Notes under the pieces: model-generated
What the model was told of the DNA's origin: nothing
Database searches by the model: none
Seen by the model: the letters and a program-made list of their open reading frames with translations, nothing else
Translations under genes and position numbers: made by a program
Source of the DNA: a virus
Direction: 5' to 3' (one strand)
Virus record (IMG/VR): IMGVR_UViG_3300046810_000256
Coordinates: 19,007 to 83,006 of that record
DNA: 64,000 bases
Shown: positions 18,625 through 27,670 of the stretch, one piece after another
Layout of the letters: every line of letters begins with the position of its first letter
Numbering within the stretch: the stretch's first letter is position 1

Positions 18625-18654
18625 CAAAATAAACCCCGCTCGGGGGCGGGGTTA
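18625..18654 (-). terminator. Intrinsic terminator
   Basis: Minus strand AACCCCGCC-CCCG-AGCGGGGTT then TATTTTGT, after the 18671 gene. Confidence 0.65.
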
Positions 18655-18670: not shown

Positions 18671-19486
18671 CTAGAAATTTCCGTACGTGCCGGGCCGGAA
18701 ATAGGTGTCGCGCGGAAAACCTAAACGTTCATCTTCTTCATCAGCGCTCAGCAGACATATGGCTTCAAGCTCTCGCTCCACTCGTGGGTTCTTTGCTGCG
18801 AGCTCTACAAGGCCTTCGCTATCAACACTCATGTTCAGTGTTGAAACCTGAGACAGCCCTTCCATAGACGGACATTTGATGTCTTTGGTGATAATCCCCT
18901 GCTTGTATCGGTCGATGTATGGTGCGTAGCAGTCCCGATACGTCGCACGCAACAACTCACAGGCGGGACGTGTCTGAAGACAGATTTTACTAAAAAGCAT
19001 GCTTGAGCCCATTTTCCGGAACTCACGCGGCAAAGCGCAGTTAAACGAATGATCTAGGATCATGATCCGAGGGGAGCCCAGCTCGCTGGCGTACGCTTCA
19101 AGGCGCTGCGCGTACTCTCTTTCCTTTCCATGATCGGTGCTGCCGTGAAGTGTGCGCTCACTCAACAGAATTGCCCGACGCCGCCCGCCAGCTTGCCGAG
19201 AGGCGGCGACGATGAAGTGATAGGTGTGGAATCGGTAGTTGTCGCAAACAACCGCCAGAAAGTGTTCAAACGCCTCGCCGTGCTTAATCGGGCCATCACC
19301 AGCCAGCGCATTCTCAACCAACTGAGGGATTTCACTTGCCTTGAGTGAGGCACCGGGATGGCGGATTTTAGTGTTGCCAGAATTCCAAATCTTCACCGTG
19401 GATACGGAATAAGCTGCTTTGCTCAGCTGCCCCATCCGCGCACGGTATTCAAGATTCTCATCGTGACGACTGCGCTTGATAGTCAT
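18671..19486 (-). CDS. Hypothetical protein (lower-GC accessory gene)
   Basis: 271 aa ORF coupled to LytTR gene. Confidence 0.7.
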   Translation of the reverse strand: MTIKRSRHDENLEYRARMGQLSKAAYSVSTVKIWNSGNTKIRHPGASLKASEIPQLVENALAGDGPIKHGEAFEHFLAVVCDNYRFHTYHFIVAASRQAGGRRRAILLSERTLHGSTDHGKEREYAQRLEAYASELGSPRIMILDHSFNCALPREFRKMGSSMLFSKICLQTRPACELLRATYRDCYAPYIDRYKQGIITKDIKCPSMEGLSQVSTLNMSVDSEGLVELAAKNPRVERELEAICLLSADEEDERLGFPRDTYFRPGTYGNF

Positions 19487-19881
19487 GCTGCCACCGCAGA
19501 CGGCAGTTCTTGCTGGCCGAGGTAGGCGGCATAGCGCGGGTAGATGTCGATTTTCCCTCGGCGGGAGACGGAGAACTCGCGCCCGCCTACCAGACAGAAG
19601 TGGTCACGGGTGAAGGACGATTGATTCTTGCGCCGCTCATTACGGGATGTCAGCCCCTCAACCGCTTCAACCCGCACCAGGCTGGCGCGATGGATACGCA
19701 CAAGGCCCGAATCACCGGCCTCGATATCTTTGAGCGTGTGCTTTCCGGTCAGCAGCCACTCAACGCCGTCGGCATCCAGCGCCGACACAAACTTCTGATC
19801 AGCCCAAAACGCAACGAACACAGATGAGTCGACTTTCTCAGGGCGGCGGTGCCAGTTCTTTCTGTAGCGGCGCAGTTGCAT
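19483..19881 (-). CDS. Stand-alone LytTR DNA-binding domain protein
   Basis: TLKDIE...LVRIHRASLVRVEAV...FSVSRR. Confidence 0.85.
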   Translation of the reverse strand: MQLRRYRKNWHRRPEKVDSSVFVAFWADQKFVSALDADGVEWLLTGKHTLKDIEAGDSGLVRIHRASLVRVEAVEGLTSRNERRKNQSSFTRDHFCLVGGREFSVSRRGKIDIYPRYAAYLGQQELPSAVAA

Positions 19882-20005: not shown

Positions 20006-21556
20006 TTAAGCGACGTCGGCGAGAAGGTCAGCTGCTTTGCTTAGAGTCGCCTGGGCCCGCGAAGACTGAGCCGCCTCGGTTTCTTCACTGCACGCGATGT
20101 AGTTGACGTCCTCAAGGAAGACCATGCAGATGGTGTCAAACAAGTCCGGGGATGACAGGCCATCGGCGGCCATGCTCTCTTTGCTGGCGATCTTGTAGCG
20201 CCCCAGCTCATCGAACGAATACGGCAGTCGTGAGCCTTGGTCGATCAGGTCGCGCTTGTGCTTCTTGCCCAGCTTGACCACGCCGTCTTTGATTGCCTCG
20301 GTGGCATGCACGGTGCATTGCGCGCGCTGGTTGATGAATCGCTTGCGGTTCTCGTTGGAATGCGGCTTGGCGCCCCACAGAACGCCCTGAATGATCATGC
20401 TGCCCTCTTGCAGCTCTTCCAGTCGGCGCTGGAACTGCTTACCCATGGCCGAGACGTCGATAACGATGGTGACGTTTGGCAGGCGCATGGCGTAATCGCG
20501 CAGCTTGACCGCCAGCGGCGTCCAGTCCTCAGTTGCGCTGTAGATCGGCACGTCGACCACCTCCACCCGGCGGCGGCGCTCGTTCGCCATCCGGTCGCCC
20601 TTGCCGGTGACGCGGAAGTGGGTGGCCACGGTCTTGTCTCGCCCAACGCCAGCCGCGACGTCGACAACGATAATGTGGCCCCACTCTTCGCCTGGCAGGA
20701 TCGGGCTCGCCTGCTCTATCGCCCGTTCGATCAGCACCGAACTCAGCAGGTATTTGCTGAGGTTGGTCGGGAACATGCCCCGCACCTTGATCTGATATTC
20801 CGGCTCCATCGTGCCGCCGTACTGGAGCCGCTTTTCCTTGATGAACTTGAGGCTGACAATCGGGCTTTCTTCGGAGTTGAATACCAGCGGTACCCAGCCA
20901 CCGCCGCGGTAGATGGACTGGCCGTGGTGCGTCTCCCAAAAGAAACCGGTAGAGCGCGTCGGCTGGCTGGCCATGATGAAGCGGTTGCGCTCGTCGGTCA
21001 GTGCGCCACCGATTACGCCAAAGTTCTCGTCTGGAATGCCGGACGCTTCGTCCGCCAGCCATAGCAGGTACTCGCCGTGGGTACCGGCCAAGTTCTCAGG
21101 CGAGCCGCGTGGAGCGGTACGGGTGGTGACGTACCATGTGGCGCTGTTACCGACCACATAGACTTTCTCAGCTTGGATAACCACGTAGTCAGCGATCCAC
21201 GCATGCGGCCCTTTGCGGATCTCCGCCAGCATGGTGGTGATTTCCTTCCACACACCCTCTCGCACCGTCTTGAGCTTCGGCGCGGTTACATAGGTGTTGG
21301 AATTGAGATAGCACAGCAGGTGCCAGAGGCAGATGACCCCGAAGCTGCGGGTTTTACCAGTACCGTGGCCAGACGATACCGACACCCGACAGCCGTAGAC
21401 TGAGGATTCATCAAAGAGCTCTTGTTGTTGCGGTGTGACATCCATCAAACACGCTTCAACCGCAAAGGCGTACAGGTTGAAGGCGTAGCGTTCGATGAAA
21501 GCGGGCCACCTCGGGTCTGTTTCTAAGCGCAGACGCTGGGCTTTCGGCTTGGCCAT
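20006..21556 (-). CDS. pacB: Terminase large subunit
   Basis: Walker A SGHGTGKT, Walker B WLADEAS, RNase H-like nuclease VVDVAAG...VID...SPDLFD. Confidence 0.95.
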   Translation of the reverse strand: MAKPKAQRLRLETDPRWPAFIERYAFNLYAFAVEACLMDVTPQQQELFDESSVYGCRVSVSSGHGTGKTRSFGVICLWHLLCYLNSNTYVTAPKLKTVREGVWKEITTMLAEIRKGPHAWIADYVVIQAEKVYVVGNSATWYVTTRTAPRGSPENLAGTHGEYLLWLADEASGIPDENFGVIGGALTDERNRFIMASQPTRSTGFFWETHHGQSIYRGGGWVPLVFNSEESPIVSLKFIKEKRLQYGGTMEPEYQIKVRGMFPTNLSKYLLSSVLIERAIEQASPILPGEEWGHIIVVDVAAGVGRDKTVATHFRVTGKGDRMANERRRRVEVVDVPIYSATEDWTPLAVKLRDYAMRLPNVTIVIDVSAMGKQFQRRLEELQEGSMIIQGVLWGAKPHSNENRKRFINQRAQCTVHATEAIKDGVVKLGKKHKRDLIDQGSRLPYSFDELGRYKIASKESMAADGLSSPDLFDTICMVFLEDVNYIACSEETEAAQSSRAQATLSKAADLLADVA

Positions 21557-21607
21557 ATGATCCTTAAACACAAAGGGGCCAGTTCCCCGGCCCCTGTCAC
21601 TCTACGT

Positions 21608-22327
21608 CTACGCCGTTCGCACTTTCAGAGACGGTTTGCGGTCTTGCGTGGCGTTCAGAACGAACGCTTTCCAGCTGCTGCCAGACGCCCAGCAGCTCAA
21701 CGTGGTTTGTGTCGCCCGGAAAAATCCTTTGCGTCGACCTTGGCCAGAGTGCAACACCATGCCGCCACCGCTGCGGGCAAGCCCTTCACGCGCCACCTGA
21801 AAGCTCACCTCCGGCATGGTGCTGGCGTCCTCCATCAACCACATGGGATCGCGCCCACCGAAACCGGCCATGTGTTCCGGGGAATGCGCGCTGGCGGCCA
21901 GAAAGAGCACGCCACAGCCTGAATACTCTGCCTGCTGGCGAAGTCTGATGCTTCTGATGGTGATTCGCAGGTAACCGACCAACCATGCGTGCTCGCCCTC
22001 AATACGCTTGACCAACTTGCTGTATTGCTCACAGCAGCGAAGCATGTCGCCGAAGGGCACGGCCACCATAGTCATCGACTCGGGGCGGCACAGCAGGCGC
22101 CAGAACGCGATAGGCGCCAGCGGGCTGATCATTCCCCGCTCCATCGGATTCATGTCTGACGCCATCGACACCTGGCAGTCAGGCAGCTGCACACTTTCGA
22201 AGGCTCGCGCCAGTTGATCGTCCACTACCATCCCGCACACCTCACGCGCGAACGCGGCCAGGTCGTTGGCGTAGCGCCGGACGAAAGCGGGCCAGCGCTC
22301 GTCATCTTGAATCAGGCTCGTGCTCAT
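21608..22327 (-). CDS. Degenerate paralog of terminase ATPase domain
   Basis: Colinear with PacB N-terminal ~240 aa (DERWPAFVRRYA vs DPRWPAFIERYA; SPEHMAG vs SPENLAG; RRKGFF vs RSTGFF); Walker A lost. Confidence 0.85.
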   Translation of the reverse strand: MSTSLIQDDERWPAFVRRYANDLAAFAREVCGMVVDDQLARAFESVQLPDCQVSMASDMNPMERGMISPLAPIAFWRLLCRPESMTMVAVPFGDMLRCCEQYSKLVKRIEGEHAWLVGYLRITIRSIRLRQQAEYSGCGVLFLAASAHSPEHMAGFGGRDPMWLMEDASTMPEVSFQVAREGLARSGGGMVLHSGQGRRKGFFRATQTTLSCWASGSSWKAFVLNATQDRKPSLKVRTA

Positions 22328-22923
22328 GCTGCGGCCTCGCTGGCCAGCTGCGCCAACTCGCGCTCGTGTTCGGCGATCAGCAGCGCGCCAGCCTTCTCGA
22401 TGGCGCGAAGTCGTGACTCTTGTTTCATGGGGGCGTGAGGCCATGGCCAGACGGTTGGCGCGAAGTCCGGCACCAGCAGCTGAAGCAAGTAACCCGCCGC
22501 CGCGCGCAGCAGCTCGTCATCGCGATAGCGCAGGTCGCGTTCCGGGTGATACCCCTTCACCAGCAGCTGGCGCTGGCGCTCGCTCAGAATGGCGTTCTCG
22601 CTCGGGCCGGTGATTGGCATGGATGACCACAGCGCCAGCGGCTGCTCCCATCCATTGGCGGCCTTCTGCGCCCATTCAGTTGTGGTCATGCGCGCATATG
22701 GCCGCGTCACGGAAATACCCTGATCACGCCCACGGCGCACCAGAAGCCACGCTTTTGGCTGCTGAGTGGCGTGGCGAGACTGCGCCAGCGATTCCCACAC
22801 CAGAAACGTCTTCTGTGTGTGGGCGTTCACGTACTCGCCCGTCTCGGTGTTGAATGCCAGGTCACTGATACCCGCATGCCGACACGAGCGCTCAAAATGT
22901 TCGCGACTGAAAAAGAGGGTCAT
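22324..22923 (-). CDS. Conserved phage hypothetical protein
   Basis: ERQRQ..KGY..ERD...WPW...KAGALLIAE pattern seen in many phage proteins. Confidence 0.7.
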   Translation of the reverse strand: MTLFFSREHFERSCRHAGISDLAFNTETGEYVNAHTQKTFLVWESLAQSRHATQQPKAWLLVRRGRDQGISVTRPYARMTTTEWAQKAANGWEQPLALWSSMPITGPSENAILSERQRQLLVKGYHPERDLRYRDDELLRAAAGYLLQLLVPDFAPTVWPWPHAPMKQESRLRAIEKAGALLIAEHERELAQLASEAAA

Positions 22924-23180
22924 GGTGTTGTTCCCGCCGCTGCTGGCTTGAATTGAAAGAGTTCGACAGGCGCCGCCGGTAAGTCGAATACGGCGGCGAG
23001 CCATGGGTGGATAGCATCCGGATCGCTGGCGCCGTCGAAGCGCCAGCGTTCTGCCGGGAAGTGTTCGCGCAGTGCGTGCTCGATCTCGCCCGCGCCATTG
23101 CGCAACCACAACTCATTCCCGCACTCACGCTCAACTGACAGCGTTTCGCCGGTCACAAGGTTCGTCACGGTCTGGCTCAC
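22920..23180 (-). CDS. Hypothetical protein
   Basis: Overlap coupling on both sides. Confidence 0.65.
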   Translation of the reverse strand: MSQTVTNLVTGETLSVERECGNELWLRNGAGEIEHALREHFPAERWRFDGASDPDAIHPWLAAVFDLPAAPVELFQFKPAAAGTTP

Positions 23181-23668
23181 TTCATTTCCCCGGTCTTGCG
23201 GTTGATCTCGGTTGGCTTGGTGAAAGCGCGGGAGAATCGGAATTCAGCAATGACCTGATTGAAACTGTGTTCTACCCGGTCGAAATACTGATTCCCTTCG
23301 GCCATCAACGCCTGCGCCAGCCACGCGGCGGGGACGCTGCGCCCCTCTTCCACGTAGGTGGCCAGGCTCCGCACCAGCCGCTGCTCGGCGTAGGTACCGC
23401 TGAAGCCCGGCAGCAAGCGGCCCTTGCCGCGAACCGTCGTCGCCAGATCCACCGGGCGAGCGTCCGCGGTCGGCAGCACCAGATAGAACCCGCCGAGGCG
23501 CTTGGGCTCCAGGCGTGCAACACGGTCTTTTCTGCCAAAGATGCGCAACCCCGCCAGCGCCAGCGAATTGAAAATCAGGTTCGCGGTGTCCAGTCGGTGC
23601 TGCTGGCGCTCAGTCAGCGCGATTGCCGCGGGCGGTGTCAGTTGCACGGGTGCTGCTTGCATATCCAT
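23177..23668 (-). CDS. Hypothetical protein
   Basis: 163 aa ORF in operon. Confidence 0.65.
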   Translation of the reverse strand: MDMQAAPVQLTPPAAIALTERQQHRLDTANLIFNSLALAGLRIFGRKDRVARLEPKRLGGFYLVLPTADARPVDLATTVRGKGRLLPGFSGTYAEQRLVRSLATYVEEGRSVPAAWLAQALMAEGNQYFDRVEHSFNQVIAEFRFSRAFTKPTEINRKTGEMK

Positions 23669-23671
23669 CCC

Positions 23672-23842
23672 CTAAATCTTGAGCCGCATCTGTGCGCGGT
23701 CACATTCGTTTTCACCGTGCGGGAGCTTGTGGGCCAAGGCTTCACAGTTCCTGCGCCCACAATCACGGCAGTAGGTGTAGGCGGGGGCGCTTCGTGGCCT
23801 CCGCCAGATGACGCGATTGCTTTCGCAAAAACGGCAGTTCAT
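23672..23842 (-). CDS. Small Zn-ribbon protein (56 aa, below ORF-track cutoff)
   Basis: MNCRFCESNRVIW...YTYCRDCGRRNCE...; fills the operon gap. Confidence 0.55.
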   Translation of the reverse strand: MNCRFCESNRVIWRRPRSAPAYTYCRDCGRRNCEALAHKLPHGENECDRAQMRLKI

Positions 23843-23868
23843 CAGTCCTGTCCCGGTCTATCCCCGGA

Positions 23869-25155
23869 CTAGGCGGGACGCGCTTCGATCATCGCCTGCG
23901 CGTACACCCATCGGCGATTAGCAAAGGCGGCCATGCTTTCGTCTGATTTTTGCTTCAGCGGGCAGTTGATGGCGAAGTCATCGCGCAGCTCTGTCAGGTA
24001 CAGACCCAGCTTCTTCTCTGGCGCTTTCGGCGCGGTGGCCGGGTCGGCGTAGGCTGGCACGGGTTTTTCGACCGCCAGCGGCAGTTCAACGCTGTGATAC
24101 GCCATGCAGAAGGCATCAAACAGGTCGGCGGCTGGGAGTTGGGCGGCTGCGATGTGCGAAGGCTTGGCCACGAGATAGCGATTCTCGGCGCTCAACTCAT
24201 AAGGGATCTTTGAGCCCAACAGCACCAGCGGATCACTCAAGCCGCAATCGGATGGCAGCAGCAGCTTCAGGTTTTTATTCCGAATCGCCTCGGCAGTCAG
24301 AACACTGCATTCAGTGCGGCGGTTCACGAAACGCTTGCCGTTGCCACCTTTTGGCAGCGCTTGACCCATCGTCATTCCGTAACACCTGACATGGGGACTC
24401 ACAACGTCTTGAAGGTACTTGAGCAACTGCACGCCATCGCCGAAGGCATCCACGAGAATCGTCGTAGGGGCTGATAGCGCATTGACGTGCCGCAGCAACG
24501 CATCGCCGTAGGACTTCAGATCACCGCCGTCTGTGAGGATTGGATAGCTGGCCACCTCGACCAGTCGGCGGGCGTCAGGGCTGTCATACACGCGCATGTG
24601 GGCGGCAACAGTCATTCCTCCACGACCAGCACCGCCGAGACGGACACCGATTACATGCTTCGCCTCGACACCCTCGGGAATCGGGCTTTCGATGGTCAGC
24701 GCCAGGGCGATATCGGCGTCACTGAGCAGGTAGCCGCGACGATCCTGATTCTGCGCCCGAAGAATCGCGGGGACTTCGTTGTTCGAAGCCATCAATGCAG
24801 GCTGTACCTTGCCTTTGACCACCACTTGCAGCTGGCCAGATGAATTAGGACGAACGATGTCTTTGATGGCCGTCGCCACCGGGGAGGCCAGGTAACTGGT
24901 CAGCAGCGGGCGCAGGCGGTAGTGGGTTTGTGCGAATCGCTGTTTACGGCCAAAGCCTTCCTGAACCGACACGGGCTTACAGTTCGGAACATCTACCCAG
25001 TAATGCACACCACGGGCGGCATTAGCGCGATCCGGCGCCGATACCTTGTAACCTTGGGTGATGAGCCATTGCTTGAAGGACGTCACGTTGCACGCCAACA
25101 GCAGATCGGTGTCGTGCGATTGTCCTTTCGGTTTTACTGCGGGGTTCGACATCAT
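23869..25155 (-). CDS. Protein containing a degenerate paralog of terminase nuclease domain
   Basis: About residues 140-357 colinear with PacB C-terminus (KRFVNRRTEC vs KRFINQRAQC; GSKIPY vs GSRLPY; ADLFDAFCM vs PDLFDTICM). Confidence 0.85.
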   Translation of the reverse strand: MMSNPAVKPKGQSHDTDLLLACNVTSFKQWLITQGYKVSAPDRANAARGVHYWVDVPNCKPVSVQEGFGRKQRFAQTHYRLRPLLTSYLASPVATAIKDIVRPNSSGQLQVVVKGKVQPALMASNNEVPAILRAQNQDRRGYLLSDADIALALTIESPIPEGVEAKHVIGVRLGGAGRGGMTVAAHMRVYDSPDARRLVEVASYPILTDGGDLKSYGDALLRHVNALSAPTTILVDAFGDGVQLLKYLQDVVSPHVRCYGMTMGQALPKGGNGKRFVNRRTECSVLTAEAIRNKNLKLLLPSDCGLSDPLVLLGSKIPYELSAENRYLVAKPSHIAAAQLPAADLFDAFCMAYHSVELPLAVEKPVPAYADPATAPKAPEKKLGLYLTELRDDFAINCPLKQKSDESMAAFANRRWVYAQAMIEARPA

Positions 25156-25442
25156 TCAGCTCCTAGCGGGTTGGCCGTGAACGGCCTCAGATTTTTTGTG
25201 TTCCCGCGGCGGATGGCCGAGGGACGTTTTTCAACAACAGGCTTGATCCACAGCTGCCCTGTTTTGAACAGGAACAGCTCCCACAGCCCAAGCTTGATTT
25301 TGGTGTCACCCTTCTCGTACAGACGCCACGATTCGCGGCTCACGTAGATCAGCTCCCCCGCAGCGGTTTCGCTCAGGCTCGCGTTCTTGCGGGCTTGCCG
25401 GATGTTTTTTGGGGTCGGTTCGCGGTCGGCGGGGAGCGTCAT
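25152..25442 (-). CDS. XRE-family HTH protein
   Basis: IRQARKNASLSETAAGELIYVSRESWRLYEKG. Confidence 0.85.
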   Translation of the reverse strand: MTLPADREPTPKNIRQARKNASLSETAAGELIYVSRESWRLYEKGDTKIKLGLWELFLFKTGQLWIKPVVEKRPSAIRRGNTKNLRPFTANPLGAE

Positions 25443-26566
25443 GCGTCACCGCCGTTATCATCCAGCCCGGCGATATCGGCCATACGCTGGGCCATCGCGT
25501 CTCTCTGCGCTTGTGTGGCCTGCATGCCTTTCGCGTAGGCGTCATTCAGCGCAACCGTATCTACAACGGCCACAGGCGCCTGCGCCGGTTCGATATTCAT
25601 GTTGAAGATGCGGCCCAGCATTTCGAGGTAAGGGCGGGCGTCGTGGATCTTCATTTCCAGCCCATCTTTGGTTTCCTTCACGCCGCCGTACAGAGCCAGC
25701 GCGCCAGGCGAAAGGTGCCGGGTGTCTTTGAGCACGAGCTGGCCAATGCCATTGCCATTGCACTCAGGGCATTCCGGGTTAGGGTCGAGGTTGGCGTCGA
25801 AGCCCAGGCCGCCCAGCTCGTCGAGCACCGGTAACGGCTTGCGCTTCGCGGCCTTGGCTTCGGCCAGCGCCTCAGCATGGCGCGCCTTGCGCTCTTCCAG
25901 CTGACGCGGGGTCATCTGGTACCGGAAATCTTTGCCGTGGCAGCACCGGCAGCAGCGGTAAACGTATTCGACCAACTCCCGAGGGTCTGCCATCGCCGCG
26001 CCGTAGATGCGCTGAATGACTCGCCCGGTGATTTCCTCAGTCTTGGCAAACAGCTCCGCACGCTTGGCCAGCGTGTATGGGTGTTCCTTAACCTTCTTTA
26101 ACAGGCGACTGGCTGCTGCTGCCGCCACTGCATCGGATTTGCACTCGTAGCCTGCATCGAGATAGGACTGAGTGCCGTTTTGTGTGACCAGCCAAAGGTC
26201 GACAAACTTCGCCTGACGGGCGTCGAGATCGTGCAGACTCCCGGCCTGCAAGGCTTCCAGCTCTTTCGGTTTCAGCTTGACCGCTTTCTTCACTCGGGTG
26301 CTGCCGCCTGTTCCGCGAGGCGTTTTTGCTTGCGCCGGAGCACCCGGTACCGCCGCAGCAGGTTTTGCAGCACGGGGCTTTCGGGCTAAAGTAGCAGGCT
26401 TTTTAGGTGTCTTTGGAGAGGTGGCTTTTTGAACGCGGCCAGCACTCACCTTAACTTCTGGCTTTTTAGGGGGTGCAAACACAGGTTTGCCAGCCTTGTC
26501 CGGGGATTGATTATCCTCGGCTGGCTTAGCGCGCTCTTCGATACCCTCGATCTTTTTCCGTGCCAC
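25439..26566 (-). CDS. pacA: Terminase small subunit with Cys-rich Zn insertion
   Basis: RQAKFVDLWL..NGTQSYLDAGY...AASRLLK HTH; CRCCHG and CPECNGNG; GVKETKDGLE. Confidence 0.85.
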   Translation of the reverse strand: MARKKIEGIEERAKPAEDNQSPDKAGKPVFAPPKKPEVKVSAGRVQKATSPKTPKKPATLARKPRAAKPAAAVPGAPAQAKTPRGTGGSTRVKKAVKLKPKELEALQAGSLHDLDARQAKFVDLWLVTQNGTQSYLDAGYECKSDAVAAAAASRLLKKVKEHPYTLAKRAELFAKTEEITGRVIQRIYGAAMADPRELVEYVYRCCRCCHGKDFRYQMTPRQLEERKARHAEALAEAKAAKRKPLPVLDELGGLGFDANLDPNPECPECNGNGIGQLVLKDTRHLSPGALALYGGVKETKDGLEMKIHDARPYLEMLGRIFNMNIEPAQAPVAVVDTVALNDAYAKGMQATQAQRDAMAQRMADIAGLDDNGGDA

Positions 26567-26639
26567 TGGTCATCAACCTTAAATGCAAAGTCTTTTGGCT
26601 ATCGGCCACGTAAAAAACGCCAACTTTCTGCGCGTTCGG

Positions 26640-26915
26640 CGCAAAAAAACCCGCAACTGCGGGCCGGATCCTGAAAGGACTAGCCCGCCGAAACGGGCTC
26701 CCCAATACCGTACAGGGGCCGCCACGGCTGGCGCTGCAATGGTGTCGAGACCATTTCCCCAATTTTGACCGTTATCCAACTCCGAATGCCTGATGGTGGC
26801 TCCCTGTCAGAAGCCCCCAATAACGGCGGAACCGTGTGAACAGCCCCCTCCGCCCAGCACCTAGCGCACGACAGCCCGGCATGGCCACCCTATGCCGGGT
26901 GGCTGGCTTACAAGC
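26640..26915 (-). ncRNA. Candidate structured RNA ending in terminator
   Basis: Stacked hairpins (CCCG-TTTCGG-CGGG, TCC-TTTC-AGGA, ATGGT..ACCAT, CCGTTAT/ATAACGG, CCCGGCAT..ATGCCGGG), then CCCGCAGTTGCGGG-TTTTTTT. Confidence 0.4.
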
Positions 26916-26920
26916 CGGTG

Positions 26921-27670
26921 TTAAAACAGGGCGTGTTGTACCGCTTCTCTCACCTGCTGCACCGTGCAGACAGGATGCTCGAATTCAATCAGGGCAGATT
27001 CGCGATGTTTGCGCGAAATGTGGTCTTTCATCACCACCGAAAACTCAGAAATAAGGCGCTCAAGACCTGCTCCGCCACGCAACCCCTCAAAAACAGCGCC
27101 GTGATGCTTGCGGATGACCCCCAGCGAATCGCTCAGCTCAATGGAGAGGCCTGCCAACTTACCCAGCAGCACCCGATCCATGCTCGCGCCTTCGACGCTC
27201 ACGGCCATCACCTGGGCCAAGCCTTCCATATAACGCTGGTTGTATTTGGTGAGCACACCCGTGAGCACGCCGGTGATCAGCGCCTGATTACCCTCTTCAG
27301 GCGCAAGGCCGAGATCGTCAGTGCGGCCCAGCAGGTAGTCAGTGGTGACGCTGTAAAGGTCGGCCAGGATCTGAAGGTTCTTCAGACTTGGCGAGCGGTG
27401 ACCGTTTTCAAAGAGGCTGATCATGGTCAGATTGGAATGACCGAGGCGCATAGCTACTTCAAGATCCTTGAGGCCCGCGGCGCGGCGGGCTTTCACAAGG
27501 CGAGCCGCAACGACATCACGCAGCGCTTGCTCTTCTTCCTTGGAACGGCTGGCCGGGCTCATGCCCTCCCCGCATTCCTCAGAATCGAACATCAGCATGC
27601 TTTCAGGCGCCGCTGCTTGCGCACCTTCCACCGGCATTACCGCGTTTTCGTTATCACCGATATCAGACAC
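26921..27670 (-). CDS. XRE-family transcriptional regulator
   Basis: RLVKARRAAGL...ISLFENGHRSPSLKNLQILADLYSVTTDYLLGRTD plus extended C-terminal domain. Confidence 0.9.
   Translation of the reverse strand: MSDIGDNENAVMPVEGAQAAAPESMLMFDSEECGEGMSPASRSKEEEQALRDVVAARLVKARRAAGLKDLEVAMRLGHSNLTMISLFENGHRSPSLKNLQILADLYSVTTDYLLGRTDDLGLAPEEGNQALITGVLTGVLTKYNQRYMEGLAQVMAVSVEGASMDRVLLGKLAGLSIELSDSLGVIRKHHGAVFEGLRGGAGLERLISEFSVVMKDHISRKHRESALIEFEHPVCTVQQVREAVQHALF

Follow-up and report, generated by a model that had tools for sequence, protein, structure and literature searches.

The window analysed here is a 64,000-nucleotide stretch (bases 19007-83006) of an 83,006-bp IMG/VR virus record that carries direct terminal repeats and is rated complete. 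It contains the DNA-packaging operon of a P1-like phage-plasmid of fluorescent pseudomonads. Judged from its sequence, this operon encodes one working large terminase (TerL) of the PacB type and three separately arisen, enzymatically dead paralogues of single terminase domains: ATPL, a copy of the ATPase domain; the core of NucL, a copy of the nuclease domain; and o271, a strongly diverged further copy of the nuclease domain. All three copies have lost residues needed for catalysis and are maintained by selection, within one transcription unit that they share with TerL and the small terminase (TerS). Catalytic loss combined with retention by selection suggests that the copies function solely through binding.

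The best DNA source for the record is a rhizosphere metagenome. The assignment to a P1-like phage-plasmid of fluorescent pseudomonads follows from proteins related to the window's, which are encoded on Pseudomonas contigs of 78-86 kb, including one annotated as a P. fluorescens plasmid. The comparison set consisted of 19 loci from related phage genomes of 77-95 kb, 8 of them close and 11 wider. The eleven wider contigs (77-95 kb) were retrieved through short forms of NucL that lack the nuclease core, and their TerLs are 62-69% identical to that of the window. The entire operon, in the same gene order, is common to six contigs, three from IMG/VR and three from Pseudomonas genomes. All named genes of the packaging operon lie on the minus strand.

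Single-domain paralogues of the large terminase

The functional terminase gene, TerL (20006-21556), belongs to phrog_2 and is 90-91% identical among close relatives. Its open reading frame (ORF), 20006-21571, encodes a protein to which P1 PacB is 35% identical across 92% of the length. The start codon is likely the ATG at 21556, which opens the sequence MAKPK and is preceded by AAGGA, rather than the GTG at 21571; the TerLs of P1, the Xanthomonas phage Rb1, ABMM1 and locus L025 likewise have the N-terminus MA(K/R). A phmmer search of PDB sequences with TerL gave no match, and the matches of a TerL profile were confined to the C-terminal nuclease motif of E217 and Sf6. The catalytic positions discussed below were assigned by motif and fold alignment rather than from a solved PacB structure. 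Searching the window's own genome with TerL returned exactly three places: TerL itself, ATPL and NucL.

ATPL (21608-22327, 239 amino acids) is colinear with the ATPase domain of TerL. Over 233 residues, the frame 21608-22444 aligns with TerL residues 16-242 at 30% identity (BLASTP, E value 9e-28), and the only PHROGs match of ATPL is the TerL-type phrog_5902. The AlphaFold2 model of ATPL is confident (predicted local distance difference test, pLDDT, 84; predicted template modelling score, pTM, 0.85), and its top Foldseek matches are the terminase ATPase domains of P74-26, HK97 and T4 gp17, with TM scores up to 0.67. The predicted model thus has the additional-strand, conserved-glutamate (ASCE) ATPase fold of the terminase type. 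A sequence-only reading of the window had placed a colinear ATPase-domain copy at 21608-22327, and both the alignment and the predicted fold agree with it. The shorter start at 22327 that it had chosen is also supported. This start overlaps the upstream stop of o200 as ATGA or GTGA in 7 of the 8 close genomes and 5 of 6 wider ones, and independent gene calls of ATPL homologues are mostly 236-240 amino acids long (one has 219). The exceptions are L033, where the o200 and ATPL frames overlap by 17 bases, and L005, where ATPL starts 5 bases past the o200 stop.

The catalytic motifs of the ATPase are lost from ATPL. The Walker A motif, GHGTGKT in TerL, is replaced in ATPL by SDMNPMERGMIS, an unrelated loop with a three-residue insertion, and the motif is absent from all 24 of 24 homologues. 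Walker B reads LWLADE in TerL and WLMED, WIIHD, WIIED or FLVEG in the ATPLs, with loss of the catalytic glutamate. Every ATPL homologue has also lost the Q and C motifs. The best-conserved part of ATPL is the set of N-terminal helices that it has in common with TerL. Among INPHARED phages, the sole match to ATPL was the terminase of Rb1 itself. The D6 phage-plasmid (NC_050154), examined directly, has a real pacB only and no extra copy.

The second copy lies inside NucL (23869-25155, 428 amino acids), where residues 142-353 are colinear with TerL 274-485 at 34% identity over 219 residues (BLASTP, E value 4e-25). In the predicted structure, the core (residues 141-357) is well modelled and matches the TerL nuclease of the Pseudomonas phage E217 with a Z score of 20.0 and a root-mean-square deviation of 2.7 Å over 198 residues; comparison of the model with Sf6 gp2 gives a Z score of 19.3. 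The modelled NucL core therefore has an RNase H-like nuclease fold, and the nuclease-domain copy that had been read from the sequence within 23869-25155 is confirmed at both levels. Models of both copies thus match terminase domains. Jointly, ATPL and NucL cover both domains of TerL (16-242 and 274-485) with the gene order reversed, as had been noted. In the NucL core (residues 142-355, 24091-24732), the first catalytic aspartate, D304 at the end of strand 1 in TerL, is replaced by Arg172. The substitution is found in 21 of 22 aligned NucLs; the remaining one is the short form of L026, which is without the core. The other two acidic metal-ligand positions are mostly retained. The erosion of catalytic motifs claimed for the two genes thus holds for Walker A, the catalytic glutamate and the Q motif in ATPL, and for the first nuclease aspartate in NucL.

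The rest of NucL is not derived from TerL. Its N-terminal domain (residues 1-100, 24856-25155) is 50-89% identical between alleles, and its C-terminal helices (residues 385-428, 23869-24003) carry the motif LRDDFA..CP...RRW.YAQAM, which is invariant in long and short forms. Within NucL, the N- and C-terminal parts are conserved at 50-89% and the core at 30-62%, making the core the least conserved part. A profile of the N-terminal domain, searched against 1.84 billion representative sequences, found 21 proteins. The close ones have 393-448 amino acids, while the distant ones all have 169-246 and consist of the N-terminal domain, a variable linker and the invariant LRDDFA..P...RRWEYA, with no core. 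Among the close relatives, L026 encodes a 196-residue NucL form without the core. The coreless distant forms, together with the better conservation of the N- and C-terminal parts, indicate that the nuclease copy was inserted into the linker of an older packaging-operon protein of about 200 amino acids. For the N-terminal domain, neither ESM Atlas nor whole-model VIA-align returned a fold, and both barely probed this region. INPHARED phages yielded no NucL homologue.

A third copy, o271 (18671-19486), lies downstream of TerL, with one gene in between and a terminator behind it. The sequence-only reading had correctly counted the first two copies and missed this one. A profile built from 8 o271 orthologues matches the TerLs of the clade with E values of 1e-14 to 4e-10, and pairwise blastp reaches 2e-8. 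The alignment with TerL is colinear, running from the linker between the two domains as far as the C-terminal helix, and o271 is assigned to the nuclease fold through this sequence profile. The catalytic aspartate positions are mostly lost; the first is valine or cysteine in most copies and remains aspartate in L024.

Further nuclease-like genes were seen in the wider loci. Three loci carry copies of the nuclease domain directly after TerL (L035:9928-10815, L039:11199-11918 and L040:9962-10846); these are 34-45% identical to TerL and have valine at the first aspartate position. In one other locus the nuclease-like gene lies elsewhere: L037:1734-2795, upstream of the operon, encodes a 353-residue protein whose C-terminal half resembles the TerL nuclease with the acidic residues seemingly kept. 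On this evidence it may be an active nuclease paralogue.

A separate observation concerns TerL itself. The TerLs of L031:9583-11877, L042:8597-10909 and L028:682-2673 (Acinetobacter phage ABMM1) are 663-770 amino acids long and are interrupted, precisely in the Walker A loop (GHG|TGKT), by an in-frame insertion of ~150-250 amino acids. This insertion is probably an intein.

Distribution, selection and allele exchange

Across the 19 loci, ATPL is present in 14, the NucL core in 7 and the extra copies downstream of TerL in 3. The third copy, o271, is found in all 8 close loci, the set that this count covers, the other 11 lying outside it. ATPL occurs in 6 of the 11 wider loci and is absent from 5, and none of the six has the NucL core; altogether, ATPL without the core is found in L026, L031, L033 and L036-L039. 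Even closely related loci differ in content. L037-L039 have ATPL and the related L035 and L040 do not, and of the TerL sisters L038 and L039 only L039 has a downstream copy.

The sequence-only reading had proposed that one terminase was duplicated and then split into its two domains. This proposal is largely contradicted by the data: ATPL is found without the core, and the core sits in an older protein with its own N- and C-terminal parts, so each copy has a history of its own. Three separate, well-supported groups appear in the nuclease tree: o271, the NucL cores and the copies directly after TerL. In the ATPL tree, 13 of 14 ATPLs form one group away from all TerLs, while the L024 copy is nearer to TerL. 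The trees have long branches and an unresolved base, and the duplications are undated relative to the split between P1 and Rb1. Loss of the first nuclease aspartate appears convergent, with arginine in NucL, valine or cysteine in most o271 copies and valine in the downstream copies.

We compared the ratio of nonsynonymous to synonymous substitution rates (dN/dS) of the copies with that of the terminase genes. Nei-Gojobori estimates in the first comparison set were 0.18-0.36 for ATPL, 0.18-0.28 for NucL, 0.08-0.09 for TerL and 0.15-0.29 for TerS. Synonymous divergence (dS) is saturated in most pairs but not in L006 and L023, the closest pair, for which dN/dS is 0.11 for ATPL (bootstrap 0.04-0.26), 0.09 for o271 (0.04-0.17) and 0.04 for TerL. 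Overall, the values span 0.11-0.36 for ATPL, 0.09-0.23 for o271, 0.17-0.30 for NucL and 0.04-0.09 for TerL, and the bootstrap intervals of the copies all lie below 0.45. The reading frames are open in all relatives, comprising ~22 NucL clusters and ~24 ATPL homologues. Because the frames are open throughout and dN/dS is well below 1, the copies are judged to be under purifying selection and are not pseudogenes. The earlier view of the two genes as intact rather than decaying accordingly stands, on open frames, dN/dS of 0.1-0.36 and confident folds.

The copies nevertheless change far faster than TerL, by 10-100 times. End branches of ATPL reach 1.8 changes per site, compared with 0.00-0.10 for TerLs of the family, and identities that stand at 90% for TerL and 65-80% for TerS fall to 27-38% for ATPL. 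Part of this diversity appears to have been exchanged. Between L006 and L023, NucL (L006:8004-9299, L023:8004-9284) has a dS of 1.16, whereas the flanking genes have 0.10-0.27. The L023 NucL groups with the allele of the window, while the respective TerLs do not group. L005 has an ATPL with 38% identity to those of genomes whose TerLs are 90-94% identical to its own. The excess of dS in NucL over its flanks, the conflict of both the NucL and the ATPL trees with the TerL tree, and the divergent ATPL of L005 together indicate that alleles have been swapped among relatives by recombination.

Organization of the packaging operon

The operon begins with TerS ('pacA', 25439-26566), which matches Pfam Terminase_2 (E value 1e-13) and phrog_51 and is present in 19 of 19 loci. 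It is 28% identical to the TerS of Rb1, and a tblastn search with P1 PacA gave no match to the window's small terminase. The next gene, HTH96 (25152-25442, 96 amino acids), has a weak match to the helix-turn-helix (HTH) family HTH_31, is found in 19 of 19 loci at 44-86% identity, and overlaps both the TerS stop and the NucL start. Between NucL and o163 lies a gene for a 56-residue cysteine-rich, zinc-ribbon-like protein (CxxC...CxxC; 23672-23842). It is kept at 46-91% identity in 18 of 18 related loci, which argues that it is a real core gene of the operon.

Three genes separate this small gene from ATPL. The first, o163 (23177-23668, 163 amino acids), is present in the close clade, absent from L026 and without a family match. 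The second, o86 (22920-23180, 86 amino acids), was taken from the ORF list and has homologues in 13 loci; it overlaps the o163 stop and ends 1 base before the o200 start. The third, o200 (22324-22926, 200 amino acids), has its true start at Met62 of a 261-residue ORF, as defined by an 18-locus alignment. Its C-terminal ~80 residues match several uncharacterised PHROGs, and its stop overlaps the ATPL start. Stop/start overlaps thus join TerS, HTH96 and NucL, o163 and o86, and o200 and ATPL.

The stop of ATPL and the ATG of TerL are 51 nt apart, and the interval contains a GC-rich hairpin followed by TTTGTGTTT (21574-21595, minus strand), a candidate attenuator. The hairpin is kept in 8 genomes, with compensatory changes in the stem. 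Downstream of TerL, o132 (19483-19881, 132 amino acids) precedes o271; it is conserved across loci, with a weak LytTR hint only. A terminator-like hairpin after o271 (18632-18653, minus strand) closes the operon, and another lies before TerS (26648-26665). Searches of Pfam, NCBIfam and PADLOC gave no match for ATPL, NucL, o163, o200, o132 or o271.

All eleven wider loci have a common frame of TerS, HTH96, the N+C protein, the 56-residue cysteine-rich protein, o86, o200 and TerL. The family therefore has 4-5 extra conserved genes between TerS and TerL (the HTH gene, the N+C protein, the cysteine-rich protein, o86 and o200) that P1 and Rb1 are without; in these two phages pacA adjoins pacB with no gene between. 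Upstream of the operon, an HTH_3 / RstR-like, repressor-type gene (26921-27670, minus strand) is separated from TerS by a structured non-coding stretch of ~290 nt (26629-26920) and then a terminator.

Possible roles of the copies

Among the enzymes of tailed phages the large terminase is the most conserved, and it is a main trigger of bacterial pattern-recognition immunity. Avs1-3 bind the terminase directly, and it is a major target of host sensors (PMC13601566; PMC13581612). The ATPase domain alone suffices to activate EcAvs2 and Upx, and Upx seems to recognise unfolded strands of the core whatever their sequence (PMC13601566; PMC13581612). The ligand in this immunity is the fold of TerL, and the copies in the window are look-alikes of TerL domains encoded in the terminase operon itself. 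The sequence-only reading had suggested that the two copies it saw may be decoys that titrate terminase-sensing immunity, or else dominant-negative regulators of packaging. We favour an accessory role in conflict, in which the copies would mimic terminase domains at the time when the terminase is made, and would occupy or mask factors that recognise those domains, for instance sensors of the host or hijacking elements. Because ATPL lies upstream of the conserved hairpin, attenuation there would allow the upstream genes, including ATPL, to be produced earlier than TerL and in larger amounts. This role is favoured because the copies are optional, evolve fast under purifying selection, swap alleles, have arisen repeatedly and have lost catalysis convergently; even so, we give it somewhat less than an even chance. 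An indispensable part in the packaging reaction is less likely than such a role. The general form of the idea, that tailed phages repeatedly evolve dead single-domain mimics of their own TerL, made in excess, which blunt Avs or Upx sensors or hijackers of the motor, is put forward more tentatively still.

Several points weigh against a role in conflict. SeAvs3 and EcAvs2 read terminase-bound ATP and active-site residues (PMC13601566). Copies without the ATP site and the active-site residues would be poor ligands for these two sensors, and a simple decoy that titrates Avs1-3 is weakened accordingly. A sensor ligand that binds also normally activates the sensor rather than blocking it; it is speculation that loss of the ATP site prevents the copies from serving as additional triggers. 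The position within the late packaging operon would fit a role in packaging equally well, as would the coupling of ATPL to o200 and the fact that the nuclease copy was inserted into an operon protein. Finally, fast evolution can reflect few structural constraints instead of conflict.

The most serious alternative, which we consider possible but doubtful, is that the phage's own pacase contains the copies as regulatory or scaffold subunits without catalytic activity. They would have retained interfaces to PacA, PacB, the portal or the cut pac end, and would adjust the cutting of pac, the assembly of the motor or the protection of ends. Much of the layout agrees with this: the copies share one operon with TerS and TerL, with a terminator at its end; in every ATPL-carrying genome except L005 (13 of 14), ATPL is translationally coupled to the conserved o200; the nuclease copy sits inside an operon protein that is itself conserved; and the candidate attenuator, also conserved, would set the ratio to TerL. 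Purifying selection and the strong conservation of the N-terminal helices common to ATPL and TerL point the same way. However, the copies are optional among close relatives with near-identical TerLs, and their evolution far outpaces that of the presumed partners, as the identities of TerL, TerS and ATPL given above illustrate. P1 and Rb1, moreover, package their DNA with adjacent pacA and pacB and nothing between.

It is unlikely that the copies are neofunctionalised binders of nucleic acid, for example dead RNase H-like domains that shield DNA ends or junctions from host exonucleases. NucL has retained the RNase H-like fold and two of the three acidic positions, and the repeated loss of the first aspartate alone, in three lineages, would suit such a function, but ATPL is left unexplained, and within NucL conservation is lowest in the nuclease core.

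Two further explanations are very improbable. If ATPL and NucL were the halves of one full duplicate, acting jointly as a two-piece pseudo-terminase, their joint coverage of TerL 16-242 and 274-485 and their co-occurrence in 7 of the 8 close genomes would be accounted for, but not the seven loci with ATPL and no NucL core, the insertion of the core into an older protein, the reversed order with four genes between the two, or their differing allele histories. A reading of the copies as functionless leftovers of partial tandem duplication, heading for loss, accords with their patchy presence and high divergence and is countered by the open frames in every NucL cluster and ATPL homologue, dN/dS of 0.09-0.36 with bootstrap upper bounds well below 1, the conserved start-stop coupling and the confident predicted folds.

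Relative to PacB-type TerLs (P1 PacB and the window's own TerL), ATPL, the NucL core and o271 are paralogues by sequence, and ATPL and the NucL core also by predicted fold. They differ from a functional TerL in three respects. Each has a single TerL-derived domain instead of ATPase and nuclease on one chain; ATPL is without Walker A, the catalytic glutamate and the Q and C motifs, and the nuclease copies are mostly without the first metal-binding aspartate; and the copies are optional and evolve much faster. The closest published item is vs.8 of T4, a stand-alone, uncharacterised TerL-ATPase-like paralogue in which Walker A and B are both retained and which activates EcAvs2 when the two are co-expressed (Evans et al. 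2026, PMC13601566). Like ATPL, vs.8 is a stand-alone homologue of the TerL ATPase that exists besides the real terminase. On its published description it is set apart by its Walker A and B motifs, both of which ATPL has lost. A full-text literature search found no description of a terminase pseudoenzyme, a paralogous decoy or a duplicated terminase domain of this kind, and the literature searched contained no terminase-mimic anti-defence protein.

The presence of up to three selected, enzyme-dead copies of terminase domains, gained, lost and allele-swapped among related phages, points to a binding-only function that has not yet been described. The genes are directly testable in culturable hosts, Pseudomonas fluorescens-type strains in which the element is carried as a plasmid. 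If the copies prove to be regulators of packaging, they would represent pseudoenzyme subunits evolving in a viral motor. If instead they jam terminase sensors or hijackers, they would establish a new principle of counter-defence, self-mimicry of a core virion-assembly enzyme, and sensor jamming of this kind would help to explain how phages cope with sensors aimed at their 'immutable' features.

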